A stretch of 64,000 nucleotides of DNA from a bacterium UBP2_UBA5202 (GTDB lineage: Bacteria > Edwardsbacteria > AC1 > EtOH8): the NCBI GenBank assembly GCA_002412795.1, contig DHVS01000029.1, forward strand, positions 195,282 to 259,281. Reading direction: 5' to 3'. Below are positions 6,714-50,000 of this stretch, piece after piece. The translations under genes and the position numbers were made by a program. The notes below the pieces were generated by a model. The model was not told the DNA's origin and made no database searches. It saw only the letters and a program-made list of their open reading frames with translations. The stretch's first letter is position 1. Each line of letters starts with the position of its first letter.

Positions 6714-7937
6714 TTAGTACTCATACCGCCTCAGGCCGATGTTCAAAAGTATCCCGGTCATCACCAGCATGGTTATCAGCGACGTTCCCCCGTAGCTCAG
6801 GAACGGCAGGGGTATCCCGGTCACCGGCATTATTCCCAGGGTGACACCGATGTTCAGAAAAACTTGAAATCCCATGATGCCGATGATCCCGATGGCGGTG
6901 AAACTGGCGAAACGGTTGCGGGCTTGCCGGGCAATAATCATGCCCCGGAACAAAAGCCAGAAGAAAAGCGAAAGCACCACCAAGACCCCGATCAAGCCGA
7001 ATTCCTCGGCGAAGGTGGAAAAGAGGAAGTCGGTGTGCTGTTCCGGCAGAAAGGAAAGCTTTTTCTGGGTGCCCTGCAGAAAACCCTTGCCCAGCAGTCC
7101 GCCTGAGCCCACCGCTATCTTGGACTGCAGCACATGCCAGCCGGCCCCCTTGGGATCCAGGTCGGGGTTGATGAAGGTCAGCAGCCGTTTGCGCTGATAT
7201 CCCTTGAGCCCGTACCAGACGGCCGGGGCCAGGCTGCCGATCAGGATGTTGATCAGGAATATGGGCAGGGCGTGCTTGAACTTGACCCGGAAGAACCAGA
7301 AAGCCAGGGCCATCAGCAGCATGAAACCGATCCAGCTGGGCATAGAGATCACGGCCACCATAGAGAGCACCGGCGAGACCATGAAGAAAAAGTTGCCGAA
7401 GGACAGCCCCTGCCAGAACACCATGGTCAGAAAAAGCGCGGCGAACGACAGCGAGGTCCCCAGATCGGGCTCCACCAGCACCAGGGCCGCCGGAAGCAGC
7501 ACTATGCCCATGGGGACCAGAAGTTTCCAAAATTTATCCAGTGAAAAATCGTGGGCCGAAAGCACTTTGGCCAAAACGAAGACCGTGGCCAGCTTGGCCA
7601 GCTCCGAGGGCTGGAACCTGACGAACCCTAAATTTATCCAGCGGTGGGCCTTCATCACCGGCGGGGCGAACAGCACCGCCACCAGCAGAATCAACGAAAC
7701 TATGTACAACGGCCAGGCAAATGCCTCAAAATAACGGAAGGGCACGGCGATGGTAAAAGCCATCAGCAGCAGGCCCAGGCCCAGCGAGAAGAGCTGCTTT
7801 TGCCACAGACCCAAAAACTGGGGCTGATCGATCTGAGTGGCGCTGTATATGGCTACGATGCCGATGGCGCACAGCAAAAGAACTGCCGACACCAACTGCA
7901 GGTCAAAATCGCGGGAGCCGAAAAATTTGATCTTCAT
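6714..7937 (-). CDS. rodA: Rod shape-determining protein RodA (FtsW/RodA/SpoVE family)
   Basis: Polytopic SEDS protein (…QPSELAK…, GIPLPFLSYGGTSL C-terminal motif). The likely start MKIKFF at 7937 forms an ATGA overlap with the mrdA stop. The ORF-track start at 7994 is probably an extension. Confidence 0.9.
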   Translation of the reverse strand: MKIKFFGSRDFDLQLVSAVLLLCAIGIVAIYSATQIDQPQFLGLWQKQLFSLGLGLLLMAFTIAVPFRYFEAFAWPLYIVSLILLVAVLFAPPVMKAHRWINLGFVRFQPSELAKLATVFVLAKVLSAHDFSLDKFWKLLVPMGIVLLPAALVLVEPDLGTSLSFAALFLTMVFWQGLSFGNFFFMVSPVLSMVAVISMPSWIGFMLLMALAFWFFRVKFKHALPIFLINILIGSLAPAVWYGLKGYQRKRLLTFINPDLDPKGAGWHVLQSKIAVGSGGLLGKGFLQGTQKKLSFLPEQHTDFLFSTFAEEFGLIGVLVVLSLFFWLLFRGMIIARQARNRFASFTAIGIIGIMGFQVFLNIGVTLGIMPVTGIPLPFLSYGGTSLITMLVMTGILLNIGLRRYEY

Positions 7938-29662: not shown

Positions 29663-30667
29663 TTAGTCATTTTCTTCTATAATTTCAGGAACATAAACCT
29701 TTTTCAACGGGATAAGACCCTTATACTTTGAATCAAACTTTTCGTAATGTTCCATTATCAAATCTACCAGCTCCACCCCATCGATCAAACGTAAATTACT
29801 TTTACTTTTGGCAAAGTTTTTTGCTGAATTAGTAAATGTACCAAGGGTAACAAGCAAACCATACTCATTAGCAGAGACTTTACCATATAAAGCGGAAACA
29901 ATTGGGTCACCAATACTGCCGTCCGTGCTTTTAACTTGTACTTTGATTATTGGCGGTTCAAAGCCCAAATCATCTTTATGGGCGATTATGTCAATTCCAC
30001 CATCAGGTCCTTCCGGGGAGACACGGGTTTTATATCCAATTACGTTTAATAATTGGGCTACAAAATCAGCGAACGGATGACCTTTTAATTCAGTACTTAG
30101 TTGCTTTAGAATAAAATCTTTTGTTGTTTCTTCTATATCCTCTGCCACGATGCCAACTGTTGGATCATTTTTCTCTTCTTTTGGTTCTTGCTTACCTTCC
30201 AAAGATACAATAAATTCATCAGCGTAATTTCTTATTTGGAAAAATGCCATGGCTGAACCTACCTCATATAGGGCGCCTTGGGTAAAGTTTGTCCTTGGGT
30301 GTTTTTTGAGCCATTTAACAGTTCTGGTATGAGGGTATTTATCGCTAATGTTTGGTTCGTATTTATAATCGCCTTCAATAATCCCAATATTAATGGTTCG
30401 CTCTTGTCTTGAAGGATATACTATATAATCGCCTGTTTTCATTTCATGTACAAAACGAAACAATTGGCCAGCATTATTGTATATTTTGCCGGGCTTGTAA
30501 TCAGGGTATACGCTTGTTACTTTGGCTTTGAATGCTTCTCTATTGGGCTTTATTAAAGAAAGATCGCCAATAATTTGCCAGCCCAAAGCAACTTTATCTT
30601 TTTTTAGAAAGAGAGAATCTGCATCACCTTCATGCCCGGCGTGTATGCCCCATACTGGCTTTATCAT
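29663..30667 (-). CDS. Mrr-family (PD-(D/E)xK) restriction endonuclease with N-terminal PUA/EVE-like domain
   Basis: 334 aa. C-terminal Mrr_cat pattern GPDGGIDIIAHKDDLGFEPPIIKVQVKS...SANEYGLLVTLGTFT. The N-terminal about 150 aa (WGIHAG..ALGW..EMKTGDYIVYP..INIGIIEGDYKYEP) resembles PUA-like readers; that part is inference. Confidence 0.78.
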   Translation of the reverse strand: MIKPVWGIHAGHEGDADSLFLKKDKVALGWQIIGDLSLIKPNREAFKAKVTSVYPDYKPGKIYNNAGQLFRFVHEMKTGDYIVYPSRQERTINIGIIEGDYKYEPNISDKYPHTRTVKWLKKHPRTNFTQGALYEVGSAMAFFQIRNYADEFIVSLEGKQEPKEEKNDPTVGIVAEDIEETTKDFILKQLSTELKGHPFADFVAQLLNVIGYKTRVSPEGPDGGIDIIAHKDDLGFEPPIIKVQVKSTDGSIGDPIVSALYGKVSANEYGLLVTLGTFTNSAKNFAKSKSNLRLIDGVELVDLIMEHYEKFDSKYKGLIPLKKVYVPEIIEEND

Positions 30668-30682
30668 TTCAACCCCCTAACA

Positions 30683-32104
30683 CTAAAGTTTAATATTTAA
30701 CTTTTCGACTTCAATGTGGATCCACTTCTCTGCCTCTTTTTCTGTTTTCTCAATAGCCATCTCAACCCCACGCTTGGCGATTTCAAGTAAGGCCTTTGAT
30801 TTCTCGCGGTCGCAAAAAGATTGGTTAATTTTATCGGATATTTTCTTCTGTTGTTCTATTGGTAGAATTGGTATAAGCACATCTTTTATTTGATCTAAGC
30901 GCCAATGGTCAATTATTGAACCACCCACATCACGTTCCATTTGTTTTTGTACAATAACAGAATTTAATACAAGGGTTAGGTATTCTGGTATTATTTCATG
31001 CTTATTTTTTATATGTAAGCGTAGGATACCGCTTGAAGGTATCATTTTAACTGGTTTGTCTTTTAGATAATATGCAATGCCCGGTGTAGCGTCTTTAGAT
31101 AGAAGTATTTCCCCCGCTAAAGGTTGGTAGCCCTCTAATTCTTTGTATACTTTGTCAGATATATATTGTTGGTTATCGTTATTGATCCCATATTTTGAAA
31201 GATTGCTAACTCGTAAAAACGGTATACCCTCTTCTTGGTATTTTTCACTACCTGGCTCAAAACATTTTGTTATTGTTACAATGTCGCCAAGTCTGGCATA
31301 GTTTCTTACGGTTTTAATGGCTTTTTCTATTTCTTCATAGATTGGTCGGTAATATTCTGCATCTATGCGTTCCTTGGCTTGCGTGTCCGAATAGTTTTTA
31401 ACATATGATAATTGCTGTTTTGTTATCCACTTTAAAAACCCAAGTTCGGAAAGAAGGATTTGCTCGGCTTGGATATATAGCTTCTTTGCTTCATTACCAA
31501 TAGCAAATGCTTCTTCAACTTTGGAACGAATTGATTTTTGGAATACATCGGTGGGTAAAAATACCTTAATCTCTTTTAGGTCAGATAAATTCAAACCTTG
31601 TTGGATGGCGCCTCTTGCTCCACGCAAACAAAACAGTTGCCCCACATTTGAATTTAAATAAGCTACTAAATAAAACGGGTCAACCTTTTTAGATCGGATA
31701 ATTGTGCTTTTACAACTAAAGATTGACGAAGCATCTTTCTTAGTAGCAATTGCTACTTTGCCCAAAGTTCCAACAACCGTTACCAATAAATCATTTACCC
31801 TAATGTGGAATTGCGGTAGTTTATTGTAGACCTGCTCCGGTATAAAAGCCGGGGCATCGTCGCTTATTATAAAATCGTTTATATCCCTATTCCGTACATA
31901 TTTAAAAGACGAATTGGGGACATATTGATCCATCGTAACAGTAGAACCAAATGGGCCTATAATAAAAGTGGCATGGTCACTTAATGTACCATTGCCTTTT
32001 TTATCAAGCAGATTAATTTTATCTAATACCTCTGCCCTGTAATACTCGGCATCAACACGCAATTCCAAATTTAAACTGCTGAATTTTACAATGGAAGTTT
32101 GCAT
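30683..32104 (-). CDS. hsdS: Type I restriction-modification specificity subunit
   Basis: 473 aa. Two target-recognition halves separated by repeated conserved helices (VDAEYYRAEVLDKI / IDAEYYRPIYEEIE). Immediately downstream of hsdM. Confidence 0.85.
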   Translation of the reverse strand: MQTSIVKFSSLNLELRVDAEYYRAEVLDKINLLDKKGNGTLSDHATFIIGPFGSTVTMDQYVPNSSFKYVRNRDINDFIISDDAPAFIPEQVYNKLPQFHIRVNDLLVTVVGTLGKVAIATKKDASSIFSCKSTIIRSKKVDPFYLVAYLNSNVGQLFCLRGARGAIQQGLNLSDLKEIKVFLPTDVFQKSIRSKVEEAFAIGNEAKKLYIQAEQILLSELGFLKWITKQQLSYVKNYSDTQAKERIDAEYYRPIYEEIEKAIKTVRNYARLGDIVTITKCFEPGSEKYQEEGIPFLRVSNLSKYGINNDNQQYISDKVYKELEGYQPLAGEILLSKDATPGIAYYLKDKPVKMIPSSGILRLHIKNKHEIIPEYLTLVLNSVIVQKQMERDVGGSIIDHWRLDQIKDVLIPILPIEQQKKISDKINQSFCDREKSKALLEIAKRGVEMAIEKTEKEAEKWIHIEVEKLNIKL

Positions 32105-32107
32105 GAG

Positions 32108-34162
32108 CTATTTCCAAAAGCTTAATTTATCTTTTTTTGCCCACTCTATAAAAGCTTCAGCTATACCATCCGGTAGCTCACCTTTGTGATTATGCAAATC
32201 ATGCTCAACAATAAAATGCCCATATTTATCAAGTTTTTTATCCTTCCCATAAGTATAAATATAATTGTAATCTCCTGAATTATCTTTGCCCGGTCTTTCA
32301 GAAACAGCAAAGAATATTGGATAATCATCTTTTTGAGGACAAAGTTTATCATCCCATTTTTGCAAAAACAAAACACTGGTCTTTGTGCCGGTGTGCGGTT
32401 TAAATGTGTTCACATGCAAACCAACAACCGCCAATATCCTGGCCTTACCAGAAATATATTCTCTTATATCTTTATCTGTTGTATTATTAAACCTACCCTG
32501 TGGCAATACTATGGCTAAGCGACCACCAGGTTTTACAAAATCAAGGTTCCGTTCTATGAAAAGAATGTCCCGACCAACCTTAGGTTTTGGCTTTTTCTTT
32601 TCGTTAAAACCCAATTCATATTTGTGTATAATGCTTGATTCTTTTATATCCCCGGCAAACGGCGGGTTTGCCATAAGAATATCAAAATTGTATTCTTTGT
32701 TGCTGTTTCTGTCCTTTTGTAAAGCTTCTAACCGTTTCAACCCTTTGCCGTATGTGTCCCGCCATTGGTTATCAGTTGTCCTTTGGTCCCAACGATCATA
32801 ATCAAGCGTGTTCAAATGCAAAACATTTGTTTCGCCGTCTCCGGCAATAAGGTTAAGGGTACGTGCAACACGAACGACCTTTTCGTCAAAATCAATGCCA
32901 AACACCCTTAACACATCTTCCTTTTCTTCTTGGGATATCTCTGTATTTTCAAAAAGATGACCGGTTAGGTGGAATATAGTATGGACGGTAAAACCGCAGG
33001 ACCCTGCGGCGGTGTCAATCATATACTCGCCCTTTTTAGGGTTGAGCATTTTTACGCACATGTCTATTACATGCCTGGGTGTAAAATACTGGCCCTTTTC
33101 ACCTTTAGCCGACTTGCTTATTAAATACTCAAAGGCTTCGTCAATGACCTGCAAGTTTGAATTGAATAGTTTGATGTCCTGCAAACTGGAAACGCAAATG
33201 GACAAATGCGAAGGCGTCAAATCAAGTTTGCTGGCATCGGGAAATACCCCCGGCCATTTTTTCTTGGCTTCATCAAACAATTTTTGTATTTTGGCATATA
33301 GCTGGGCTCCAGTTTGCCCGGTATTTCTGAATTCCAGCACTCTAAAAGTATTGTCATCCAAACCAGCTAACGCTTTTTTAATGTCATCGTATGTATATTC
33401 GGGATTTTTACTACCGTCTGCGATACCGGGGAGTTTTTTACTATTTAAAAAATAGCTTATAACGGTTTTATCCTGTTGGCTTTTGTTTTCATCATACAAC
33501 TTGGTAAAAATAAGTTTGAATACCTCTTCAAATACATCAACCCCGGCGTTTGCCAGGACTTCATCCTCCATCTCGGTGATTATGTCTTTTAAAGTCTTGC
33601 CTTCGTTGGGTATTTTGTCCTTAATAATAAGATCGCGAAGAGTAAAGCGTTCTTTTAAAATATCCTCGAGGGTTTGATCCGCTTTTGGAATATCGGTAAT
33701 ATCTTCAAAGAAATTAGGATCTTTACGGTTGTAATGTGAAATCTGCCCGCCGTTTGACCATACACCAATAGGCGCACCGGTAGCGTTGCAATAAGACCTT
33801 AATTGCTCCTTGCCGTCTTTTAATTTAGGTTTTTTAACCTCAACTATTATATATTCTGTGGTCGGTCTATCCTTATCAAAAATGACGATATCGGCCGTTT
33901 TGGTTTCCCGGCCAAACGTAACCGAATGCTCAAAACGAATACGCCGTTTAGGATAGCCATATTCGTTAATAAGTTTTGCGGCGTATAGCTGGCGTACGAC
34001 CTCTTCAGGCTTTAACTGTACTTCCTTATCTCTTATTATGCAAACAACGTAAGGCTTACCCTTGATCACTGTAATTTTAGCTTCAAGGGCTTTAATTTCT
34101 TTTGGGTTAAAGAGAGAAAGGTTATAGTTTGAGTCTTTAAGTATATCAATTATACTAGCCAT
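32108..34162 (-). CDS. hsdM: Type I-like N6-adenine DNA methyltransferase with N-terminal HSDR_N (PD-(D/E)xK-like) domain
   Basis: 684 aa. N-terminal ADIVIFDKD...YIIVEVKKPK nuclease-fold signature typical of HSDR_N. SAM motif DTAAGSCGF. Catalytic LMANPPFAG. Confidence 0.9.
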   Translation of the reverse strand: MASIIDILKDSNYNLSLFNPKEIKALEAKITVIKGKPYVVCIIRDKEVQLKPEEVVRQLYAAKLINEYGYPKRRIRFEHSVTFGRETKTADIVIFDKDRPTTEYIIVEVKKPKLKDGKEQLRSYCNATGAPIGVWSNGGQISHYNRKDPNFFEDITDIPKADQTLEDILKERFTLRDLIIKDKIPNEGKTLKDIITEMEDEVLANAGVDVFEEVFKLIFTKLYDENKSQQDKTVISYFLNSKKLPGIADGSKNPEYTYDDIKKALAGLDDNTFRVLEFRNTGQTGAQLYAKIQKLFDEAKKKWPGVFPDASKLDLTPSHLSICVSSLQDIKLFNSNLQVIDEAFEYLISKSAKGEKGQYFTPRHVIDMCVKMLNPKKGEYMIDTAAGSCGFTVHTIFHLTGHLFENTEISQEEKEDVLRVFGIDFDEKVVRVARTLNLIAGDGETNVLHLNTLDYDRWDQRTTDNQWRDTYGKGLKRLEALQKDRNSNKEYNFDILMANPPFAGDIKESSIIHKYELGFNEKKKPKPKVGRDILFIERNLDFVKPGGRLAIVLPQGRFNNTTDKDIREYISGKARILAVVGLHVNTFKPHTGTKTSVLFLQKWDDKLCPQKDDYPIFFAVSERPGKDNSGDYNYIYTYGKDKKLDKYGHFIVEHDLHNHKGELPDGIAEAFIEWAKKDKLSFWK

Positions 34163-34239: not shown

Positions 34240-35106
34240 TTATGTTATATATCTCTTTGAATTAGTCGTGCATTTTCTACCAGTTAAGGGTGCGGTAAAA
34301 TAATCTTCATCTAAAAGTTTTACCAATTCTTTTATTTCTTTACGGCTTGTTGGTAATACTATTTTCCCCTCTCTAATGTTGATAGCCACCCCATATTCCC
34401 TACCTACACGTCTAATGTTTGGTATAGTAACATTATCTAGTACTGAGTTCCTTTTTAACAGTGCAATTCTCTTTCTTACTATTTGATTTGAATTTGTTTT
34501 AAATAACTCTCGGTTAGTGATTAAAAACATCTCGTTGTCGATAAATTCATCTATTTCAGCATCGGTTGCCTCTCGATAATACTCCGTTAGGCTCAAAAAC
34601 TTTCTTGTGTTTGCATACGATATAAAATATAAATTACCATCAACGAACAAAGCTGTAATCCTGTCCTGTAGCGTCATGCCTGGCTCTTCCAATTTTGAAT
34701 ACGTTTCCCTACTGTTGATTAAAGTAACACCACGTTTTAAGATTCTCCGTGAATCAAAAACCTGAAATGCTATATACCCATTGTTTTCTACTCGAGGTCC
34801 AAAAAACAAACATTTTAACGATATATTTTCATCATTCAGGTTCAATACCCCACAACTTATAGGGTTGTTTATGGCAGCAAGAATGTCGTCGCTCATTTCA
34901 TAATTAGGTATTTTATAAATCTCGCCCACCTCTGCAGTATAGTCACCAGTAAATTCAATTTGCTCGCATTCAGGATCAATAAATATTTCTTTTTGCCTGG
35001 TTAAATACCTTATTACTTCTGTTTGTACATCAGCAGTTAACGGTATTCGTTTTATGCTTTGCGGATCATTAAGTATCGCGAATAAATTTATAGCTGGTTG
35101 TGGCAT
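34240..35106 (-). CDS. DUF4868-like protein, candidate KwaB of a Kiwa-type defence pair
   Basis: 288 aa soluble protein. SD GGAGG inside the end of the preceding 4-TM gene. Size, partner and RM-adjacent context fit Kiwa. Family assignment is from memory of the architecture, not from a search. Confidence 0.45.
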   Translation of the reverse strand: MPQPAINLFAILNDPQSIKRIPLTADVQTEVIRYLTRQKEIFIDPECEQIEFTGDYTAEVGEIYKIPNYEMSDDILAAINNPISCGVLNLNDENISLKCLFFGPRVENNGYIAFQVFDSRRILKRGVTLINSRETYSKLEEPGMTLQDRITALFVDGNLYFISYANTRKFLSLTEYYREATDAEIDEFIDNEMFLITNRELFKTNSNQIVRKRIALLKRNSVLDNVTIPNIRRVGREYGVAINIREGKIVLPTSRKEIKELVKLLDEDYFTAPLTGRKCTTNSKRYIT

Positions 35107-35108
35107 GT

Positions 35109-35630
35109 TTAAACCTCCAATAACATGTATTCTGTTAGTTGAACAACTGTTTTAACGTTTTTACAGTTGCTTATTGTGTTTTTTGAAATAAGAACATACG
35201 AAATACCACCATCTAAAGTTACTTCATAAAAATGATACTGGTATGGTCCTATACCTATAAGTGGGTTAAAATGATATGCATGAGTTGACCATACCACAAT
35301 AAAAAACAAAACGCCAACGAAACAAAGCACTGGCTTGTTTACTGCATCTGTACTCTGATTAATGAAAGGTAACAGGTAAACAAGGATAAAGCCAACAATC
35401 TCTTTATCAGCAGTTTGTATGGCATCAACTTTAACAGGCATTTTTTCTAGTTTTATTTTAGCCAATTCTAAAATACATTTGCATAGTATTACCAATGCAA
35501 GCGCTATTATAAGATAAACCCAACCTTGCTTAATATCCCATTTTTCACTAAATTTAATAAACCATAACGTTAGCAGCACTGGGGCCAATGATGTGCTAAC
35601 CAATAAAAGTTTTGCTAAACAACTGATCAT
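35109..35630 (-). CDS. Four-TM membrane protein, candidate KwaA
   Basis: 173 aa with four hydrophobic helices (LLLVSTSLAPVLLTLWFI, VYLIIALALVILCKCIL, IVGFILVYLLPFI, VLCFVGVLFFIVVW). 2-nt gap to the next gene. Confidence 0.4.
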   Translation of the reverse strand: MISCLAKLLLVSTSLAPVLLTLWFIKFSEKWDIKQGWVYLIIALALVILCKCILELAKIKLEKMPVKVDAIQTADKEIVGFILVYLLPFINQSTDAVNKPVLCFVGVLFFIVVWSTHAYHFNPLIGIGPYQYHFYEVTLDGGISYVLISKNTISNCKNVKTVVQLTEYMLLEV

Positions 35631-36680: not shown

Positions 36681-37406
36681 CTATTTGCTGTCTTGTGGCT
36701 CGCGGTTTGAATCGCGGACGACCAAAGTAGTTTCCACCTGGGCATATCTGTTCTTTCTTAGAAATGTATGCCTGCCCAATTTGTCAAAATCACCGTTTAT
36801 CCCGGTAAAGCTCATAACCTGCGTTATTAAAGGCGTATCATCCACGCTCCCGAGTATGCCCCCCAATAGGCCGGTGAGGGCTATAAGTGTGTCTGGTAAA
36901 ATAGATGCGCCGCCGGTGGCAACCGCTTTGACCACATTTTGAATGACGGTCATATAACTTTGATCCTGCTGAAGTTTTTGCAGGGCCGCCCCCGTATCGC
37001 GGATACCCTTATTGCTCTTGATTATTGAGGCCACCAGATGAATTTGGCTGGGGGGCTTTAAACTTTCGCTTGTTGGTTCCCAATAATATGCCGTGCGTTC
37101 AACCGGCAGTTCCTCGTTATCATCAACATTGGCAAAGCCTTTTATGCTTATTGTCTGCGGATTCCCTCCAAGGTTATCCACCGTTGAAAGCAGGAGGTAA
37201 AGATCCGAGTAACGGACAATCCAAGGTATGTAAGCTTGCTTATTATCAAGAATGAGCACCCGGGCCAGGCGCAATTCAAGCCCGGTAAGTTGATTGGAGG
37301 TTGGTATTCCCACCAGGCCGTAGCTTTTTACTTCCGCCAGGCTGATTGGCGCAGACGGCAGACTCATAGAGTCCACGTACAAAGTCGGCTTGATATTTAG
37401 GCTCAT
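36681..37406 (-). CDS. Hypothetical 241-aa protein of unknown family (second gene of the DUF900 operon)
   Basis: Strong SD (CTAAGGAGAATT-ATG). No Cys. Gly-zipper-like hydrophobic segment ATGGASILPDTLIALTGLLGGILGS. No motif recognised. Confidence 0.6.
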   Translation of the reverse strand: MSLNIKPTLYVDSMSLPSAPISLAEVKSYGLVGIPTSNQLTGLELRLARVLILDNKQAYIPWIVRYSDLYLLLSTVDNLGGNPQTISIKGFANVDDNEELPVERTAYYWEPTSESLKPPSQIHLVASIIKSNKGIRDTGAALQKLQQDQSYMTVIQNVVKAVATGGASILPDTLIALTGLLGGILGSVDDTPLITQVMSFTGINGDFDKLGRHTFLRKNRYAQVETTLVVRDSNREPQDSK

Positions 37407-37475
37407 AATTCTCCTTAGATTTACTGCTATTGGTTTATGATAACGATATTTTTAGCCTGGGCGCCGGTAGCAGCC

Positions 37476-38434
37476 CTATTGATTAAGCAAGCTCCGGTCA
37501 ACGCCTCTCAGGATATCTCTGATCAACGCCAGGGGTTCTTCTTCATCCAGCGCTTCCGAATGAGTATCCTTTTCGCCGGTGATGATATCTGAGATATCTA
37601 TATCGCAGACATTGTCATAAACATCGGCCCGGCCGGCCAGCCCGCTCCGGCCCAGCCGCCTGGTGCCGAAATGCTTCAAGCCCGCCGAAGCCCCCAGCAC
37701 CTGGTCTTTGCCGGTATACAGCGCCGTGATCCGGTAGCACAGGTTGGCCATCAGACTGCCGTCGCTTTCCGCCGGCTGATGCTTCTGAAAAATGTCGTTG
37801 TCCACGTCCGCCGCCACCATCACCAACTGGTGGACCAGCGTGATCAGCTGGGGATTGTTAAGCTGGCGGGAGGCGATGGCCAGGGCTTTCTGGATCACGT
37901 AATTTCCCATGCTGTGGGCGATGATGGATATCTTGGCTTTACAGGGCTTAGCCTTGTCCTTTAAGGCCAGGTGTTGGTTGGTAAGCAGGACGTTGTGCAG
38001 GCTGACCAGCATTTTGGCCAGTTCGGGCCCCGAGGCCCGGGCGTCCTCCCGGTCCGGCAGGTAACCGTAGACCGCGTCATTGGACGGCCAGCTGAAAAGA
38101 ACCAGCGCCCCCAGGCTGCCGGGACCGGAATATAGCTTGGATTTCAGGGTCATGTAGCGTTTTACGGAATCTTCCCATCCGTTATTGTACCCGTGGACGA
38201 ACAACGAAATGTGCTTTTGATCCTCGTTTTTTCCTCCCCTATCTTCGGGAATTCTAAGGCAATATCCGTCAAAGCCGCTGCAAATTCTCCCGGTTGGCAT
38301 TTCTTCCACCAATCCGGTTTTAGGTAATCGCCGCCGTTGCGCGCATTGTAATAGTACTGCATCTTTTTTCCCCTGTTTTTCCCCCAGATGCCGTTTTCGA
38401 ATATGCGGTTTGTCACCATGAATGAATCCGGCAT
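37476..38434 (-). CDS. DUF900-type alpha/beta hydrolase, reading frame interrupted by a -1 frameshift at an A6 run (38227-38232)
   Basis: Frame of ORF 38162..38434 gives the family-typical N-terminus MPDSFMVTNRIF.... Frame of ORF 37476..38534 continues with HISLFVHGYNNGWEDSV...LFSWPS...ISIIAHSMGNYV (nucleophile elbow)...VMVAADVD. The first about 100 aa of the 352-aa ORF look non-protein-like. Confidence 0.75.
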
Positions 38435-38683
38435 AGTATATTCCTTTCTTCTTTACCTGGTTAAATAATCGGCAATAAGATTTTCCGTCCTGCGGGTTTT
38501 CCCTGCGCCATGCGCAACCAGTTTTAAGTTCCACTTTATAAATGCTTTTCAGCCAGCCCCAAAAGCAGTCTTGTGCACCTGCCCGGTTTGCCTTTTTCCA
38601 TTGGTAACCGCTTTAAGCTATAAGCCGTATGCTATACGCTGTACCCTAAACCCTAAATCCCAACCCATTGCAATTACTAACCT

Positions 38684-38975
38684 TATCCCCTTGCTTACCC
38701 CCAATTCCCCCCAGGGGATATACAATTCCCCCCAGGGGGAATTCTTTTCCCCCAAGGGGAGCAACCATATCCCCCAGGGGATATTTAATCCCCCCAAGTA
38801 GAAATTATCCTTCCCCAAGGGGCGCGGCAGTTTCCCCAAGGGGGAAGACTCCTTCCCCAAGGGGCAATTACTTTCCCCTTTGTTACACAGTTCCCTCCCC
38901 CTGGGGATATTGCCAATCCCCAGGGGGAAACTGTTTTCCCCCGCCTAGCGCTGGCCCCCTTTTTCCCCGGCAGGG
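38684..38975. repeat. Array of about 12 phased 21-bp repeats, each with a CCCC-N(1-2)-GGGG palindrome (iteron-like / protein-binding array)
   Basis: Units start near 38704, 38725, 38746, 38768, 38788, 38810, 38831, 38852, 38873, 38895, 38916, 38935. Examples: TTCCCCCCAGGGGATATACAA, TTCCCCCCAGGGGGAATTCTT, TTCCCCAAGGGGCGCGGCAGT, TTCCCCAAGGGGGAAGACTCC. Intergenic, between the 121-aa gene and the DUF900 gene. Confidence 0.8.
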
Positions 38976-38988
38976 TGCGGTCAAAAAA

Positions 38989-39354
38989 TTACGCGCTCTT
39001 TTGCTTCTTGCCCCTGGACGCTTCCTTGGACATCTGCTCGCGGATCTTGCGCAACTGCTTGGACAGGGTCTGGTCCTTGCCGATGACGCCGACCATGGCG
39101 TCCATCATCGAGGAGGCCTGGATATAGGCCGCCGTGGTGGAAGCCACCGCCTTTTGGGTGGCCTTGTGCAGTTCGGCCTTCTTGGCCTCCTGGGCCGCGT
39201 CGTCAACAAAGGCCTGGTTGGTGGCTGTCTCTAAGGACGTGGTCTTGGCCGTGGTATCGAACCCGGATGCCTTGAGCGCGGCAGCGTTGTCTTTAAGGAA
39301 CTGGACTACCAGCTTGCAGAACGCCATCATCTGGGCATAGGTCAGCTTGGCCAT
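38989..39354 (-). CDS. Hypothetical all-helical 121-aa protein
   Basis: GC-rich codons. SD AAAGGAGC. Ala/Lys/Gln-rich with basic tail (KEASRGKKQKSA). No family recognised. Confidence 0.6.
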   Translation of the reverse strand: MAKLTYAQMMAFCKLVVQFLKDNAAALKASGFDTTAKTTSLETATNQAFVDDAAQEAKKAELHKATQKAVASTTAAYIQASSMMDAMVGVIGKDQTLSKQLRKIREQMSKEASRGKKQKSA

Positions 39355-39572
39355 GGGGTGCTCCTTTCAGATTTGGTTGTGGTTTTGTTATAGCTATAAG
39401 CTGTAAGCCTTCAGCTGTAAGCTTCTAATTACCGGCTGCTGGATAGCGGAGAACCTTCACGCTTCGCTTTTTGCGGCCCGGTGCCTGCCGTCCGGTTGTC
39501 TTGGCGGATATGCCTGAAGGAACACAGCCCTGCGTCCCTTCAGGCTTTTTAGTATAGATGTACTGCCCGGCG

Positions 39573-42500
39573 CTACTTCAGCGCCACCATTTTCTTAGTG
39601 CTGTTGAACTCGCCCGAGACTAAGCGGTAGAAGTAGATTCCTGCCGCCGCCTGTCTGCCCGCTTCGTCGTTGCCGTTCCATTTGACGCTGTACGGCCCGG
39701 GGTTTTGGGATTCGTTGACTAAGGTTTTTACCACCTGACCCAGGGTGTTGTAAATTTTCAGACTGACCTGGCCCTGCTTGGCCAGCTGGTAACTGATGGT
39801 TGTCTGCTTGGAGCAGGGATTGGGCGCATTCTGCATAAGTTCGTAACGGTAAGCCATGGGTTTGGCTTCGCCCATATCAGCTTGCGCTCCGCCGTTGCCG
39901 GTCTTTCTGCCGGTGGCCTTGTCATAAGCGAACAGTTCATATTTATCGCAGGTGACGATGGCCCCCTTCTTCAGGTTTACGATCTTAAGAACGCCCTCGC
40001 CATCCTGACTGACCGGCTGGGGCAGGTCCTTCTCGAAAACAGCCATTTGGCCGCTGGGAACTTTAACTGTACCCAGCGAGACATTGTCCACCCATATCTG
40101 ATAGATATAATCGGCCTTGTCTGAATATTGCTGATACAAGCTTATCTTCAGGGTGTTCTTTTGTTCGCTGTTCAGGGTCGGCAGGTAGTATTCCAAAGCC
40201 GTGCTGTCGTAGTCCACGGTTATGCCAGTGGATTTTTTAGCGCTATAGGTTATAAAGCCGTCCCTTTCCAGGGTATAGATTGACGGAGTTTCACCGCCCA
40301 CATCGGCGGACAATGCTGCTGTCACCTGGCCTGCCGAATCCCGGGCAATAAGTGAATATAATGGGCCGGTACCTTCGGTCCAAATGGTGGTCATCTTATT
40401 ACCGTCGGCATTTTGGCGATAGGCGATCTGGGGATATACAGAAGGCTGGGTCGGGTTTTTACTGTAATCTTGTTCCACCTGCCAGGCAAAATCGGCATAA
40501 TTCGCATAACAGGCCTTATAAAGTTCGTCTGTGGTTGCTTCGCTCCAGGCGATGTAATTGCCGTCAAATACCGGGTTAAGCGATGCGGTTAATGGGCTAT
40601 TGCTCACGTTCTCGGAACCTTCCCAGCTGAACGGTGTATACAAAGCTTTTGCCAATGCCAAGCCCCAGTTGCCCTTGTTGTGGAAGATATCGTTGCCCTC
40701 CTGCCAGACCACATGGATATCGCCGTAGAAGGCCAGCGAAGGCTCGTCGGAAACAACCTCCGGGCTTTGGGACAGGTTGACCTTGTTTTTCCAAGCGCTG
40801 GTATAAGGATCGTAAACTTTCCAGTATATTTCGCCCTCGTAGTCCCAGGCTACATGTATGCCGCCTTTGGAATCTATGCAGATGGTGGGAGAGGCGGGAT
40901 TCTCCTGTGGGTCGCCGCCGGAACCGCTGGTGGAATCCAGGGTATTCCAGGCAAACGCAGTCCCTCCAGCCGGGCGGAAGCCGTAAAGCAGTTTCCAGTA
41001 CCAGGTATAGCCTGAGGCGCTGTTCCAACTGTCAATTTTTTCCAAGACCAAATGGGTTCCGGCAGAATTTACCACCATGGCCGGCGGACTGGCCTGATGC
41101 ATCTGGTCCCAATAGCCCGGCGCTTCCATAAGGGTCTCAACATTCTGCCATGTGGCGCCGGTATGTTTGGCCGTTTTTAATACCCAGCCCACGCTGGGGG
41201 TCTCGGCTTTCCAGGCAATCACCGTGTCCGGGCCGTAAATACCGATGACGGAGGAGGGGTTTGTTCCTTCAGCGTAAACGGCAGGACCCGAAGCCCAAGT
41301 GCCCGACCAGGTATACCCGTCGTCTATGGAATTTTGGTAGAACACCGAATCGGCCGAGGTATATGTTAAATGCAGTTTGCCGTTGCTGTCGTAAAGCAAA
41401 TGCCGGCCGTTGTTGTAGGCCGTGGCCATTGCTGTATTGGAATTGGTGAAGGCCTTGGTGTTAATTTGTACATAGGGACTCCAGCTGCCGATATTGCAAG
41501 ATCTGTCCATGGCCGTCACATGCATTTGCAAGGTTTGACCAATTAGATAATCCGGCACAATGTAAGACCAGGTAGTTCTTTCGATGGGGGCAGAGTGATT
41601 AACCGTATATTTAGAAGATGGTTTGCTGGCAAATACGCCCACCGGTTCGGGGCAGACCCAGTAGCCACCAAAATTTGGTTCTAAAGTGGGGTCCTCTTCC
41701 GGCCAACGCAAATTAATGCATTTAGTAACAGCATCATAATAGCCAGTAGGTTGCGCAACTTGAGGCGGCTTGTCAGTGTCAAAAGTAGTTATGCTTACTT
41801 CAGTAGTATCGGTTTCCGCCTTGGGTATCCCAACCATTATATCCCAATACATTACCCTATAAGTATAATTTTTGCCTATAGAGACATTTTCATCAGTATA
41901 GGTAGTGCCCCCGTCTACAGAATCTATCAGAACATAAGCCGTGGAACCGTTAACTTTTCTGTATATATAGTTCCATCTATAGTTATTATAATCCCATTGT
42001 AGCATTATTTTTTTTCCATGTTGCCCGGCTAATTGCGTAGCAGTTAAACTAATAGGAAACCTGAGATATTCCTCTTTTAACCCGCCAGCTGGCCCAACAT
42101 TATAGTTGGCATAATTTGTCCGGTAATTAACCCATATATTTTTGTTCCATTCCATTTTTACAAAAGTATTGCCCATGCGTGTTACTGCAAAGGTTGTTTT
42201 ACCCTGCCCCGCTCCACCAGTAAAAGCCCAATCCCTATATTCCCATGGACCGGCAATCGTGGGCGCAGTATAAAAATTTAAGAGCACACCAGACGGCACA
42301 CCCGGTTGTTGTTCCCAAGTTACTTCTAATTCATTATAAATCTGATTATTTACGCTTAAGACACTAAGATCATAAGTTTCACCTTCTATTATGGCATTAT
42401 GGCTTCTCATAATCCGGCAACTATCGCCGACGGTCCACTGCCCGGCAATATCTCTTAAATTATACGAAGGGTCGTCATAATTGTGATAACCCCAATTTAT

Positions 42501-43436
42501 GCTGCCGTCGCTGCCCACGCCCTGATTGCCTACCACATCGTAAAACCACTGGCTTGCAGGGAAGGTGGCCGAATTAGCGGTTAATTGCCAGGTTGTGCCT
42601 CCGTTAGCGGTATATGCTACTTTGCCGTCGGAAAGAGCTACGCTCAGATTGTTCAAGTCTGCGGCGCTTACTTTAAATATTGCCAGCCTGGTGCCCAACG
42701 GCGTATTGGTGCCGGCCGGAAAACTATAAGTTCTATCAAACAGCACGGTATTGGCCGGATCATTACAGATTTGCCAATTGCCGCCGCCATCGCTGCTTCT
42801 GGAAATTAAGCAGCTGTTATCCCCGCTCACTATAATTTGGCTGCTGTTGGCTGGGTTGACCCAAAGCCCGTGATACCAAAGGGAAAGCGAATCGGCATTG
42901 GGCGAAGGCCGTTTTTGGGTAGGCAACCAAGTGGTGCCATTGTACTTTAACACCACACCATCCCCGCAGCCAATATAGCCATAATAGTAACTGCCGCTGG
43001 CAATCATTTTAATTGACAGGAAGGGATAGGTGGCAGACCATTCAGTTCTCCACGTACTACCCCCATCGGTAGTCCTTAACAGTATCCCCGAATATCTATC
43101 AGTTCCGGTGTTCTTATAGCCCACTATCCAGCCGTTTAGCGTCCCGGCAAAACAGACATCCATAAAATCATAGTCGGCCTGGCTTGTTATTACTGATTTT
43201 TCCTGCCAGTTCCATCCGCCATCGGCGGTATAAAGCACGGCCCCTTTGGTTCCCACGGTCCACAGTTTGTACCCGTCTATCTTGGCTATGCCTTTCAAGT
43301 CGCGGTCTATACCCGGTTCTGTTCCATGACCCAATTGCACCACCCAGTCGCCTTCGGCGTAATAAGTGTCGCCAAGGCTTTGTCCGGCCAATCCAACGGC
43401 CAATAACAGGGCAATTAAAAGTATTCTCTTTTTCAT
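39573..43436 (-). CDS. Large secreted BNR/Asp-box beta-propeller protein with T9SS-type C-terminal sorting domain
   Basis: Likely start MKKRILLIALLLAVGLAGQSLG at 43436 (signal peptide). Asp-box motifs TADGGWNW, TTDGGSTW, SSDGGGNW, TANGGTTW, SIDDGYTW. C-terminus NAPNPCSKQTTISYQL...LKIYNTLGQVVKTLVNE...GIYFYRLVSG...KKMVALK. Confidence 0.82.
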   Translation of the reverse strand: MKKRILLIALLLAVGLAGQSLGDTYYAEGDWVVQLGHGTEPGIDRDLKGIAKIDGYKLWTVGTKGAVLYTADGGWNWQEKSVITSQADYDFMDVCFAGTLNGWIVGYKNTGTDRYSGILLRTTDGGSTWRTEWSATYPFLSIKMIASGSYYYGYIGCGDGVVLKYNGTTWLPTQKRPSPNADSLSLWYHGLWVNPANSSQIIVSGDNSCLISRSSDGGGNWQICNDPANTVLFDRTYSFPAGTNTPLGTRLAIFKVSAADLNNLSVALSDGKVAYTANGGTTWQLTANSATFPASQWFYDVVGNQGVGSDGSINWGYHNYDDPSYNLRDIAGQWTVGDSCRIMRSHNAIIEGETYDLSVLSVNNQIYNELEVTWEQQPGVPSGVLLNFYTAPTIAGPWEYRDWAFTGGAGQGKTTFAVTRMGNTFVKMEWNKNIWVNYRTNYANYNVGPAGGLKEEYLRFPISLTATQLAGQHGKKIMLQWDYNNYRWNYIYRKVNGSTAYVLIDSVDGGTTYTDENVSIGKNYTYRVMYWDIMVGIPKAETDTTEVSITTFDTDKPPQVAQPTGYYDAVTKCINLRWPEEDPTLEPNFGGYWVCPEPVGVFASKPSSKYTVNHSAPIERTTWSYIVPDYLIGQTLQMHVTAMDRSCNIGSWSPYVQINTKAFTNSNTAMATAYNNGRHLLYDSNGKLHLTYTSADSVFYQNSIDDGYTWSGTWASGPAVYAEGTNPSSVIGIYGPDTVIAWKAETPSVGWVLKTAKHTGATWQNVETLMEAPGYWDQMHQASPPAMVVNSAGTHLVLEKIDSWNSASGYTWYWKLLYGFRPAGGTAFAWNTLDSTSGSGGDPQENPASPTICIDSKGGIHVAWDYEGEIYWKVYDPYTSAWKNKVNLSQSPEVVSDEPSLAFYGDIHVVWQEGNDIFHNKGNWGLALAKALYTPFSWEGSENVSNSPLTASLNPVFDGNYIAWSEATTDELYKACYANYADFAWQVEQDYSKNPTQPSVYPQIAYRQNADGNKMTTIWTEGTGPLYSLIARDSAGQVTAALSADVGGETPSIYTLERDGFITYSAKKSTGITVDYDSTALEYYLPTLNSEQKNTLKISLYQQYSDKADYIYQIWVDNVSLGTVKVPSGQMAVFEKDLPQPVSQDGEGVLKIVNLKKGAIVTCDKYELFAYDKATGRKTGNGGAQADMGEAKPMAYRYELMQNAPNPCSKQTTISYQLAKQGQVSLKIYNTLGQVVKTLVNESQNPGPYSVKWNGNDEAGRQAAAGIYFYRLVSGEFNSTKKMVALK

Positions 43437-43499
43437 TTTTGTTCCCCTTTTGGTTTTTTGGTAATTGTCAGTTAAATTAACCGTTTTACCATATTGCAA

Positions 43500-43665
43500 C
43501 ACTTGTCCTGAGCGGTGCACTGAGCCACCGCCTTTGGCGGGGGTATACTTTTCCGAGGTGTACTTCGACGAGCTCAGCACAAGTTTACCGAAGCACTTGT
43601 CCTGAGCGGTGCACTGAGCCACCGCCTTTGACGGGGTATACTTTGCCGAAGTGTTTACCGAAGCA
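43500..43665. repeat. Tandem 94-nt-period direct repeat between the two T9SS cargo genes
   Basis: CACTTGTCCTGAGCGGTGCACTGAGCCACCGCCTTTG is identical at 43500-43536 and 43594-43630. TTTACCGAAGCA occurs at 43584-43595 and 43654-43665, and the latter copy contains the stop codon of the FG-GAP gene. Confidence 0.85.
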
Positions 43666-47099: not shown

Positions 47100-50000
47100 C
47101 TATTTGACATTTTTGTCCCGCTTTACCCCGTGCTTGCCGGTTAACCGGTAAAAATGCCTCTTGGAAACGCCATAAATTTTGGCCGCTTTGGTAAAATTGT
47201 ACCCGGCGCTTTCCAAACTCCTTATTATCAGCTGTCTTTGGCTGCCCTCATGGTTATCTCTAATGCTTTGAGCGTCATCTACCCGGTATCCTTCAATTTC
47301 CAATTCATTCTCGGTAATCCTTCTTTTGGAAGCCAGTAAAACCGCCTTTTGAATGGTATTCTCCAACTCCCGGATGTTTCCCGGCCAATTGTGCATCACA
47401 ATGGCCCTCTTTGCCCCTTCGTTAAAAGACAGGCTTCCTTTATTGAATTTCTTTTGATACTTGTTCTTAAAATACTCGGCTAATACCAGTAAATCCTCGC
47501 TTCTTTCCCTTAGCGGCGGGATGTCTATCTTGATCACCTTCAGCCGGTAATACAGGTCCTCCCGGAACCGTCCCTCGTTGATCTCTATCTCCAGGTCCTT
47601 GTTGGTGGCGCAGATCATCCGGACATCCACCCGGCTGGCCGTCTCGCTGCCGATCCGCCTGATCTCCCCGGCCTCTATCACCCTTAACAGCCGGGCCTGC
47701 ACCCCGGGGCTGGCGCTGGCGATCTCGTCCAAAAACACCGTGCCGCCGTCGGCCGCCTCAAACAGCCCGGTCTTGTCCTTGCTGGCTCCGGTGAACGACC
47801 CTTTTACATAGCCGAACAGCTCCGATTCCAAAAGCGTCTCCGGCAGGGAGCCGCAGTCCAGGGCCAGGAACTTTTTGTCCTTGCGGGCCGAAAGCTGGTG
47901 CACTATCTGGGCCGCCATTTCCTTGCCGGTGCCGGATTCCCCGTCCAGCAGCACCGTGACATCGGTGGGAGCGGCGGCCTTGATCCGTTTGATCATGCTT
48001 TTGACCGCCGGGGAGTTACCGATCATCCCCTGCAATGCCTTGGACCCGGTAACTTGATGCTCCCTGCTCTTTGACCTCAGTTCTTCCAGCAACCGGTGGC
48101 TTTCTATCACCGCCCCCAGGATCTGGGCCAAAGCCTTGGTGAAATCCCTCTGGGCCTGGCTGAATAACCCCGGTTTAAGCCGGGAATCCAGGTAGATGGC
48201 GCCCAGGTTCCCTTCCCTTGACTTTAGCGGCAGGCATAACAGCGAGCGGATGGCATTGCGCTTGACGCTTAAGCGCGAACTGAGGGCCTCATCCAATTGG
48301 GCGTCGTTGGAGACCACCATGGTCTCCCCGGAGGCCGCGGCCATCACGGCATTGGAGGAAAATTCCAGCGCATCGTGCTGGGTCAGGGGATCCAGGTCCA
48401 CCTTGGCCGCCAGGAAATGTTTGGAGTTCTCATCGTTCAGGAACAAGCCCCCCCTTTCGGCATTAAGAAGATTTACAGTTACGTCCAAACAACTTTGAGC
48501 CAGCTCGGCCTGGTTCTTTTCGGGGTCCAGCAGGGCGGCTATCTGGTACAGCCCTTCCAGCATCCGGGCCCCGGGCAGGAGATTGCCCGGAGCGAACAGC
48601 CGGTGGACTGCGGCCAGGATGGTGTTTCTGGTCCGCTCCAGATAAACCGGGGCCCCCATTTTCTGGAACTCGGCCTCGGCCGCCAGCAGGCCGGGCATCA
48701 GTTTTTCGGCGTCGTTAAAACTGTCCGATTCCATGGCCATTTCCCCCGTCTTAAGCCAGGCTTTGGCCGATTCGGCCGGATCGCCGCTGTCCTTTAGCTC
48801 GCCTGCGGCTTGCATCGCCAGATCCAGGCCTTTGTTTATATCGCCATTTTTAGCCATATAAAATCCTTCCAGCATTTTTAGCTGCGCCTTTTCTATTGCA
48901 TCCCCGGCCTGGGTCCTGGCCCGGCCCAGATAATCCTTCATTGATGAATGATCATTGAGATATCCTGCCGCCAAAGCACCGTAATAAATGCAATCCCATT
49001 GTATTTTAAAGCCCTTTGCAGATGCCAAAGACATTGCTTTCTCAATGCTATCAAGCCCTTCCCGATGGCGGTTGTCTTCGGCACAAACAATTCCCATTTC
49101 TTTTCTTATGATAACTTCAACATAATCCAACTCGTTTTTTAACGATATGTCCAGACAATGGGTTAATGTTTTTATGGCATACGCTGTTTTACCCATAAGT
49201 TGTTCTTTGGAAGAGACATTAGACAGGCAGATAAGCATGTTTTGTTTATCACCGTTTTCTTCGTAAAGTGCATACGCTTCAAGGTATTTTTCTTTGGATA
49301 GTTTTATCTGGGCCGATTTCCCGTAAATCAGGGCTAAATTAGCTGTTATATTGGCCTGCATGGCAAGGCCTTCATTTGGACTAAAATTGCTTTCCGCTTT
49401 TTGCAGACACAAAAGAGCCTGACCCCAGTTTTTTAAACTGATATTTATCAAGCCTAAATAACATAAGGAATAACAAAGCATGCTGTTTTGCCCTTCCTGT
49501 TCCACCAGGTTGCTGCTCTGCTCCAGAGATGTTTTGGCATTGACTAAATCGCCTTCCTGCCACTGGCTGTAGCCCAAAATATTTAATAATTTTGCTTTTT
49601 CTATCGGATCGGATATCTCAATCATAGCAGCTTTTTCGGCCCAATCTATCACCTGCTTGAAATCGTTTGAGCGCTGATGATGCCTGGCCAACAAATTATA
49701 TATTTCAAAATATGTGACGTTGGAGCATCGGCCAGAATTGGCAATTTCCAAAGATCTGTGTAAGTTATCTGCGGCCTCTTCCGCTCTTCCCTGCAGACCC
49801 AGCACCCTGCCCTTGTAGGCCAGGTAAAGGCTCTTCTGATCGTCATTATTTACGGCAGGGAAACCTTCTTCCAAAGTTTCCAATGCCTTGGTATGATCGC
49901 CCTTGTTGGCATATAGCTTGGCCAGGGTCTGATAGTACTCCCACTCACCGGAAAGCTGTCCCGCCAATGTCTTCCACAACTCTATGGCCAAAGCCCACCG

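Follow-up and report, generated by a model that had tools for sequence, protein, structure and literature searches.

An exactly phased array of 21-bp repeats adjoins the gene for a small, predicted all-helical protein in Edwardsbacteria and in distantly related bacteria

We analyzed a 64,000-nucleotide (nt) stretch of DNA from the bacterium UBP2_UBA5202 of the Edwardsbacteria (contig DHVS01000029.1, positions 195,282 to 259,281; this whole stretch is called the window here, and positions are counted from its first letter). It carries, at 38684 to 38977, an array of 21-bp repeats to which no strand is assigned, and the minus-strand gene next to it (38989 to 39354) encodes a 121-amino-acid (aa) protein of an unannotated family. 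This gene is the conserved genetic partner of the array: among 25 distinct loci of the protein family, 24 have an array of 21-nt period past the gene. The reading that we favor, with a probability of roughly 45%, is that the array is a cis-acting nucleoprotein array bound by the adjacent protein, with which it would form one module; the argument for binding is drawn from genetics only.

When the sequence is laid out in 21-nt lines from position 38684, the array fills 14 register slots of 21 bp each, and the register is exact over all of them, with zero indels. Nine of the 14 slots contain the full 10-mer CCCCNNGGGG (at 38705, 38726, 38747, 38768, 38810, 38831, 38852, 38894, and 38915), two internal units retain one half only (CCCCAAGTAG at 38789 and CCCCTTTGTTAC at 38873), and the three flanking slots at 38684, 38936, and 38957 are degenerate. 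A GC-rich 10-mer alternates with an AT-rich 11-mer, the GC content being 76% in the cores versus 32% in the spacers, and the spacers are themselves duplicated as super-repeats of 42 and 63 bp. The first-pass annotation of this DNA had described about a dozen helically phased 21-bp units with a CCCC-GGGG palindromic core, and the sequence matches that description. Its spacing of 19 to 22 bp was right in the mean of 21, but the range stems from the variable lengths of the C and G runs; once the core is taken as the fixed 10-mer, the spacing is strictly 21. Its comparison with a helically phased array of protein-binding sites is supported as well.

The periodicity is confined to this one place in the window. 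Tandem Repeats Finder reported periods of 21 and 63 for the array, and a repeat-family search found spacings of 21, 42, and 63. All 15 exact matches to TCCCCN(1-2)GGGG in the 64-kb window fall within the array; shuffled sequences had a mean of 3.8 such matches, and none reached 15. Self-identity of the array was 0.50 at a lag of 21 and 0.56 at a lag of 63, compared with a peak of 0.38 at any lag in 2000 shuffles, and a scan of lag self-identity found no 21-nt periodicity elsewhere in the window. The array is genuine and non-coding.

Similar arrays are present in other genomes. A scan for the DNA pattern (three CCCCNNGGGG cores 10 to 12 nt apart, one genome per species) returned at least 120 loci. 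Among the matches listed, about 28 are true arrays of 5 to 17 units in which nearly all core spacings are multiples of 21, and their hosts span 31 to 69% GC and distant lineages: Marinilabiliales, Prolixibacteraceae, Carboxylicivirga (three arrays), Geofilum, Tannerella, Treponema, Thermoanaerobaculia, other Acidobacteriota, and Candidatus Edwardsbacteria. Many of the other listed matches are chance or G/C runs in actinomycetes. We set aside the matches in Streptomyces and other actinomycetes as unrelated, since most consist of three units, of G/C runs, or of proline-rich coding repeats (L024). Many of these (L004, L005, L007 to L009, L017, L025, L038, L044, L080, and others) are G/C runs at a spacing of about 20 bp, probably an unrelated repeat, and they sit no more than about 100 nt from where the fetched stretch starts, a point that may or may not coincide with the end of a contig. 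The window array itself is identical in six independent assemblies of its organism, and its ortholog in a second member of the Edwardsbacteria, DeMMO3_1 (L012), has one unit fewer. A full-text search of the literature turned up no account of such arrays or of their motif, and the array apparently belongs to an undescribed class.

To identify genes associated with the arrays, open reading frames (ORFs) within 3.5 kb of the 28 arrays were compared by all-against-all BLAST. The single family common to different taxa consisted of homologs of the 121-aa protein, and the 3′ end of their gene always abuts the array. Loci were then collected from the protein side, which gave 25 distinct loci from Marinilabiliales, Edwardsbacteria, and cable bacteria; the 24 arrays found past the gene lie on the same strand as it, and the sole exception, L143, has one unit only. 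The linkage spans at least three phyla and protein subfamilies that are only 25 to 35% identical. In a subfamily of 118-aa proteins, the stop codon and the array are separated by a clear intrinsic terminator, and in cable bacteria the array begins at the stop codon of the gene. The gene on the other side of the array varies by locus (DUF900, serpin, PixA-like, methylase, or convergent restriction genes), it is convergent in at least six loci, and we found no conserved gene downstream of the array across the compared loci. In the comparison of flanks in other genomes, which the first-pass annotation had proposed, the family gene is the one conserved neighbor. A metagenome scan with the protein profile yielded only 7 loci. 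The first-pass annotation had named two candidate partners, and linkage singles out one of them, the 121-aa helical protein; the other, a putative MucR-like protein 3 kb away, had no Pfam match even at E values up to 10.

Comparison with the closest relatives indicates that gene and array are inherited as a unit. The window and L012 share an 822-bp block (38546 to 39367, minus strand; 91.8% identity) that comprises a 13-nt leader, the gene, the array, and a tail; this block is the only DNA the two have in common, and both flanks are unrelated. Within it, the array differs by 16 substitutions and one 21-nt indel in about 290 nt and the gene by 19 substitutions in 366 nt, so that by this count the array diverges no faster than the gene. 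In L144, whose protein is 80% identical, a diverged array is followed by about 0.9 kb of unrelated DNA and then ORF6N, without the DUF900 gene or the gene for a 241-aa protein that follow the array in the window.

The protein family is sizable, with 251 members in a clustered collection and, by exhaustive profile search, 328 clusters at 50% identity. No member has a Pfam domain or an informative name, and all are annotated as hypothetical. An AlphaFold2 model built from a 50-sequence alignment (predicted local distance difference test score of 91) places helices at residues 6 to 22, 24 to 29, 35 to 91, and 96 to 120, and we are confident in the prediction of a helical hairpin around a 57-residue central helix. 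The only basic clusters are short and lie at both ends of the protein. Several members of 211 to 265 aa (P0121 to P0127 and others) contain two tandem copies of the domain in one ORF, and this duplication hints at a dimeric unit. Longer members were also considered as informative fusions, but this was rejected because they are mis-called starts or tandem duplications.

The period of the arrays is constant while their motif drifts. Every lineage has a period of 21, often with a super-period of 42 or 63 nt. Most loci carry (CG/TG/AT)CCCC-NN-GGGG(AT/CG); Draconibacterium halophilum (L128) has TACCC-NN-GGGTA together with ATTCCC-NN-GGGAAT, L147 has ATTC-N6-GAAT (TTCC-N4-GGAA), Maribellus (L150) has GGAC-AA-GGAAAT, and cable bacteria combine CCCC/GGGG with GTCAC/GTGAC half-sites in all four combinations. 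From these motifs, a family-wide site of about AT-YY-CC NN GG-RR-AT can be proposed. Units of which only a half is kept, such as GAAAAC-A-GGGG and CCCC-T-GYTTTT, are recurrent. Among 194 units, G-only halves number 32 and C-only halves 23, mismatches that would give G-U pairs number 31 on the sense strand versus 37 on the antisense strand, and the dinucleotides that flank the core show no pairing above chance within a unit. This lack of strand bias and of covariation indicates that the half-sites are independent, like protein half-sites and unlike base-paired stems. Likewise, the retention of a two-turn spacing while the motif changes is expected of binding to duplex DNA on one helical face.

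We therefore favor a model in which the non-coding array acts in cis as a series of short, dyad-symmetric sites for protein on duplex DNA; being exactly two helical turns apart, these sites would all lie on the same side of the helix. In the most likely mechanism, the half-sites would be filled by dimers of the adjacent protein, and these would polymerize cooperatively along the array into one large nucleoprotein complex, much as small centromere- and iteron-binding proteins do. The gene, the frequent terminator, the array, and a conserved end motif would make up a self-contained module of about 0.8 kb that, judged by sequence comparison, recurs in bacteria of the Fibrobacterota-Chlorobiota-Bacteroidota (FCB) group and in cable bacteria. 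The likely consequence would be that protein and DNA form a fixed block or boundary at the margin of a variable region, which often carries defense genes. Such a block could serve as an insulator or roadblock, as a site of nucleation, or as an anchor or centromere-like site. Of these, a boundary or roadblock at the edge of a defense island is the role that we would favor. The presence of one gene and several arrays in Carboxylicivirga (L021, with the gene, versus L026 and L036, without it) fits a binder that acts in trans. A more ambitious proposal, that this is a widespread two-part chromosomal module that builds a sequence-specific nucleoprotein block at the borders of variable islands and that its protein represents a new kind of DNA-binding fold, is tentative, and we consider it rather doubtful.

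Several observations weigh against binding of the array by its neighbor. The protein lacks a recognizable DNA-binding fold: Foldseek searches of the PDB and BFVD gave no match below an E value of 1, Pfam, NCBIfam, and PADLOC gave no match, PHROGs gave no meaningful match, and the only hit of a sequence search of the PDB was MafG (E = 0.018). Nor is the family basic, its median isoelectric point being 6.1 and its median net charge −1. The proteins of L147, L128, L150, L141, and L142 are 73 to 85% identical and differ chiefly in a disordered C-terminal tail, yet the inner motifs of their arrays are visibly different, so that recognition would need shared outer bases or DNA shape. In the 118-aa subfamily, the flanks of the unit are polar relative to the gene (YG-CCCC..GGGG-AT), which a symmetric site need not be. 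About half of the Bacteroidota arrays found by pattern, and all of those from Acidobacteriota, have no family gene within the 8 kb fetched. Finally, terminator-like hairpins between neighboring units are more frequent than expected (10 seen versus 2.4). One of them, at 38896 to 38928 on the plus strand, is a perfect 13-bp inverted repeat with a 7-nt loop formed by two neighboring units and followed by AACTGTTTTC; by its sequence, it is terminator-like for transcription that enters the array opposite to the direction of the small gene.

Two alternatives take up these objections. One, which we regard as unlikely, is that the array is the template of a non-coding RNA of 21-nt repeats (short GC hairpins or GGRA-type motifs) that binds or titrates a protein, possibly the adjacent one, and resembles sponge RNAs such as CsrB/RsmZ or, in type III toxin-antitoxin systems (ToxI/ToxN, CptIN, and TenpIN), the repeat antitoxins. 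As in those toxin-antitoxin systems, tandem short repeats lie beside a small gene in defense-rich neighborhoods, and the frequent terminator between them would set the ratio of the products. The acidic to neutral protein is unlike a DNA binder, and the polarity of the 118-aa-subfamily units, in which GGGGAT/GGAAT is best kept on the sense strand, would suit a transcript. Both strands fold better than shuffles (z = −3.7 and −4.5), but the minimum-free-energy scores are similar on the two strands and hence do not discriminate. The strand-specific signal of a type III system is absent: across the 194 units there is no asymmetry of G-U versus A-C mismatches and no compensation, within or between units, after loss of a half. 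CCCC-NN-GGGG is unable to close a 2-nt loop, the exact 21-nt period across different motifs has no obvious RNA rationale, and a conserved promoter ahead of the array could not be defined. Rfam 15 returned nothing at the gathering threshold and only chance-level matches at E values up to 10. The order of gene, terminator, and repeats is also the reverse of that of ToxIN, in which the repeats precede the toxin gene; ToxIN units are 36 to 45 nt long and fold into pseudoknots, and its toxin is an endoribonuclease, whereas the protein here is a predicted helical hairpin without a ToxN-like nuclease fold and with no match in PADLOC. The second alternative, which seems to us distinctly unlikely, is that these are structural or selfish GC-rich palindromes like repetitive extragenic palindromic (REP) sequences and bacterial interspersed mosaic elements (BIMEs), which sit beside the small gene by common descent only and serve general host factors or block transcription from both directions, without the protein acting on them. 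Arrays without the gene (solo arrays) occur in near-identical copies, several per genome, between ordinary housekeeping genes of Acidobacteriota, including Thermoanaerobaculia, where the whole 21-nt unit is conserved, and they occur in Bacteroidota as well. The excess of hairpins between neighboring units fits here too, and units of the C-only type with a T-run and of the G-only type with an A-run resemble oppositely oriented terminators. Like REPs, the arrays are intergenic, regular clusters of GC-rich palindromes with possible roles in termination or protein binding. REPs of Enterobacteria and Pseudomonas are imperfect hairpins of 20 to 40 nt in alternating orientation, with variable linkers and a link to RAYT transposases; none of the latter were seen here, and the array consists of 10-bp palindromes (4 + 4 around 2 nt) with non-palindromic flanks, head to tail in a strict two-turn phase and next to a specific gene. 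The 24 of 25 linkage across divergent subfamilies and phyla, with gene and array staying together while the flanks change, likewise weighs against this reading. The solo array L036 of Carboxylicivirga sp. M1479 (1032 to 1300), a paralog of the gene-linked L021 array (6515 to 6810), retains the stop codon of the gene and the following bases TAATGCCAAAGGCTT, and it thus derives from a linked copy. Beside the Acidobacteriota arrays, the search for a family homolog produced one marginal candidate only (L062; hhalign probability, 48%), which is arranged differently and is not followed by an array. The first-pass call that this is not a typical REP agrees with the short head-to-tail palindromes and with the fixed partner gene. 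Dispersal without a positional link to specific genes is not what we find in this lineage, where there is one array in the 64-kb window; look-alike solo arrays are nevertheless multicopy in Acidobacteriota and in some Bacteroidota, such as Carboxylicivirga.

The remaining explanations fare worse against the comparative data. A relic or active iteron origin, or the partition centromere of an integrated plasmid- or phage-like element, is in our view very unlikely; the first-pass annotation had suggested a relic origin or centromere. A spacing of 21 to 22 bp, a conserved core with a variable spacer, and 10 to 17 copies match iteron and centromere arrays such as those of R6K, P1, F sopC, and R1 parC; the array lies just downstream of a small gene, as sopC follows sopB, the window region is a low-GC island, and at one locus (L151) genes for a bactofilin and for an actin-like protein (ALP_N) follow about 1.1 kb downstream. 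Set against this, neither the window nor 23 of the 24 other loci has Rep, ParA, ParM, or TubZ, a tblastn search with the protein had no match among 72,556 plasmids and 50,697 phages, the loci lie on chromosomes, in genomes of 2.7 to 6.1 Mb, and the identity of the array across assemblies gives no sign of an episome. Still slimmer are the chances that the DUF900 operon has its operator or promoter in the array. The array precedes the DUF900 start by 150 bp on the same strand, and any DUF900 promoter must sit in or near the module tail. In L012 and L144, though, the orthologous arrays are followed by neither DUF900 nor the 241-aa gene, each lineage has a different next gene, which is often convergent, and the conserved partner is the upstream gene; comparison largely refutes this earlier suggestion. 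Translation of the array into a heptad-repeat protein is the least probable of all; it would give, for example, SPRGxxx heptads from the plus strand, or PLG/PWG heptads from the minus strand if the small-gene stop codon were read through. The 21-nt period is a multiple of three, the window array is crossed by an open plus-strand ORF (38668 to 39234; 188 aa) and by a minus-strand frame open for about 109 codons, the readthrough frame is open for 67 codons, and in five cable-bacterial loci the −1 frame is open for 83 to 126 codons from the stop codon. There are stops in four of the six frames of the window array, though, and its open frames are not kept in the orthologs L144 and L145; L006, L052, and L149 have stops in all six frames, the register slips by 1 nt in L002, L052, and L113, and many arrays are preceded by terminators. 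Stops are depleted from the CCC-CNN-GGG frame to the same extent on either strand (22 and 21 per 259 units), which composition accounts for, no single frame stays open from lineage to lineage, and half of the plus-strand ORF is antisense to the real gene. A coding array was thus rejected for the window and for the whole class, in keeping with the first-pass view that the region is non-coding. A separate observation concerns the Electrothrix cable bacteria (L130:6313-6561, L154:4313-4621, L155:422-766, L156:4313-4579, and L157:4313-4690): the −1 frame is open through the array in all five, with heptads YPQGDYV/PSQGAKG and then xxxxNDx, and a conserved LLxKLEQxFG peptide or motif further on is cut off by stops or a frameshift. 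The open frame may be fortuitous, or it may encode a genuine repeat protein or the product of a frameshift.

Among known systems, the array is closest in architecture to centromere and iteron arrays, yet it fails membership in both, having no Rep gene and no motor NTPase. Partition centromeres (F sopC/SopB, R1 and pSK41 parC/ParR, tubC/TubR, and alp7C/Alp7R) have, like the module, about 10 to 12 short repeats beside the gene for a small protein, phased so as to allow a cooperative nucleoprotein filament, and their repeat sequences diverge fast between relatives. The likeness to sopC is particularly close, since it is directly downstream of the gene for its binder and has an inverted repeat within each direct repeat. 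Adjacency and co-inheritance of gene and array hold here in 24 of 25 loci. The module differs in its 21-bp unit with a 4 + 4-bp dyad, in its chromosomal location and absence from plasmid and phage collections, and in the lack of an accompanying ParA, ParM, or TubZ motor, L151 being the only one of 24 related loci with ALP_N nearby. The adaptors of centromeres are ribbon-helix-helix, helix-turn-helix, or winged-helix proteins, and the predicted helical hairpin is unlike these known centromere-binding folds. Plasmid iterons (7 × 22 bp in the R6K gamma origin, 19-mers at 21-bp spacing in P1 oriR/incA, and 17-mers at 22 bp in RK2 oriV) are likewise tandem direct repeats at two helical turns with a conserved core and a variable spacer, in 5 to 14 copies, and they are able to titrate or “handcuff” their binding protein. 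Iterons are usually asymmetric sites for monomers, whereas the core here is dyad symmetric and the context is the edge of a chromosomal island. Scans of the neighboring ORFs with Pfam, NCBIfam, and PHROG revealed no Rep initiator, and no AT-rich unwinding element or DnaA boxes were noticed at 38400 to 39600, a region inspected without a dedicated scan.

[quoted passage not shown] CRISPR repeats are 23 to 50 bp long, with unique spacers of similar length and cas genes. Here the period of 21 bp (a 10-bp repeat and an 11-bp spacer) is far below that of any CRISPR, the spacers are duplicated rather than acquired, and no cas genes lie near the array; the only CRISPR-type match in Rfam was CRISPR-DR18, at 21.4 bits far below its gathering score of 50. 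The first-pass annotation was therefore right that this is not a CRISPR.

All genes around the array are on the minus strand, in the order BNR protein, 121-aa gene, array, DUF900, 241-aa protein, ORF6N, KwaA/KwaB, type I restriction-modification (R-M) system, and Mrr-like endonuclease. The BNR protein (39573 to 43622), which precedes the 121-aa gene, has 1349 aa and a type IX secretion system sorting tail. The stop codon of the 121-aa gene at 38989 is 11 nt from the last register slot, and the DUF900 hydrolase (37476 to 38534) starts at 38534, about 150 bp past the array. Given this common strand, one correction to the first-pass annotation is that the array is downstream of the 121-aa gene as much as it is upstream of the DUF900 gene.

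The tail of the module (38545 to 38683, minus strand) is conserved in L012. Just past the array, at 38644 to 38666, the minus strand reads GGGTTGGGATTTAGGGTTTAGGG, a G-quadruplex-like run (ACCCTAA repeats on the plus strand) of which the four G-runs are kept in L012 with different loops. It is followed by five heptamers of the form TAYAGCN (38609 to 38643), which lie within a 55-nt stretch that is unchanged in L012 despite 8% overall divergence. Five tandem heptamers (AGAAGCT, TACAGCT, GAAGGCT, TACAGCT, and TATAGCT; 39392 to 39426, minus strand) also occur 36 to 70 nt upstream of the small-gene ATG, and the two blocks, of the same heptamer type (TAYAGCT) and in the same orientation, bracket the gene and the array. 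The distal end of the module in the window is the motif GGCTGGCTGAAAAG (38545 to 38558, minus strand), where homology with L012 stops. This motif, of GCTGAAA(G) type, is also found past the arrays of L137, L138, L147, and L149. Within a few bases of it, the window ceases to be homologous to L012, and L137 to L149, with variable cargo directly beyond, and on this sequence pattern the motif may be a recombination or insertion boundary.

On the other side of the gene, members of the 118-aa subfamily have a conserved leader of about 130 nt (L149:4880-4985, L137:497-605, L128:5873-5985, and relatives). Within it are a promoter-like box (TAnnTTTT) and two hairpins, as well as an A-run after which comes the hairpin GGCCACCTG...CAGGTGGCC; this hairpin shows compensatory changes and has the near-palindrome CTGnnAAGCTTnCAG in its loop. 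The leader has no match in Rfam; from its sequence, it may serve in attenuation or as a leader, or else terminate transcription of the opposite strand.

The GC content of the window falls to 33 to 40% at about 30 to 36 kb, against a background of about 58%. This low-GC stretch and its defense genes place the array at the upper edge of a defense island. The island includes a Kiwa pair (34240 to 35630) in its lowest-GC part (33 to 34% GC), consisting of KwaA (173 aa; NCBIfam NF041622, E = 1e-8, below the curated cutoff) and KwaB (288 aa; Pfam PF16162). The type I R-M system (29663 to 34162) pairs a 684-aa HsdR_N/N6_Mtase fusion with a 473-aa specificity subunit and adjoins the 334-aa Mrr-like endonuclease. 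The DUF900 hydrolase and the 241-aa protein (36681 to 38534) behave as an inserted two-gene cassette, being missing between the array and ORF6N in L144, and neither has a match among models of defense families. Elsewhere in the window, a 1583-aa protein (47100 to 51851) combines a Ser/Thr kinase, TPR repeats, GAF, a sigma-54 activator AAA+ domain, and a C-terminal helix-turn-helix.

Defense genes lie beside the module in 8 to 10 of 16 annotated loci. Next to the ORF6N (PADLOC candidate family PDC-S05), Kiwa, type I R-M, and Mrr genes of the window, these include a type IIG R-M system in L012; HNH-ScoMcrA with SRA or PLD, plus an SLFN helicase, in L128 and L150; a type IV restriction enzyme and HNH in L137; AIPR/MzaE in L141; a Dcm-type methylase with HATPase in L147; and MvaI/BcnI R-M with Vsr in L149. 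Two Draconibacterium genomes carry different defense cargo between the module and the same FGase gene, and this variable cargo next to a fixed gene indicates that the module marks one side of a variable hot spot. At L151, the bactofilin and actin-like (ALP_N/MreB-like) genes downstream of the module occupy 6526 to 8165.

Recognition of these arrays as a class has practical value, since gene callers put spurious ORFs on them (73 to 108 aa in L131 and L144) and repeat finders could mistake them for mini-CRISPRs. If the pairing of gene and array is functional, it defines a new protein family, of the 328 clusters described above, together with its cis element, and cultivable carriers exist in Draconibacterium halophilum and Maribellus sediminis. 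If the protein does build a block on the array, that block could act as a roadblock for transcription or replication, set a boundary or nucleate silencing, or be a hot spot of recombination by which neighboring defense cargo is turned over. Since about half of the annotated loci have defense genes beside the module, it may mark, and possibly shape, the edges of defense-island hot spots in Bacteroidota and related phyla, anchors of this kind being poorly described there.

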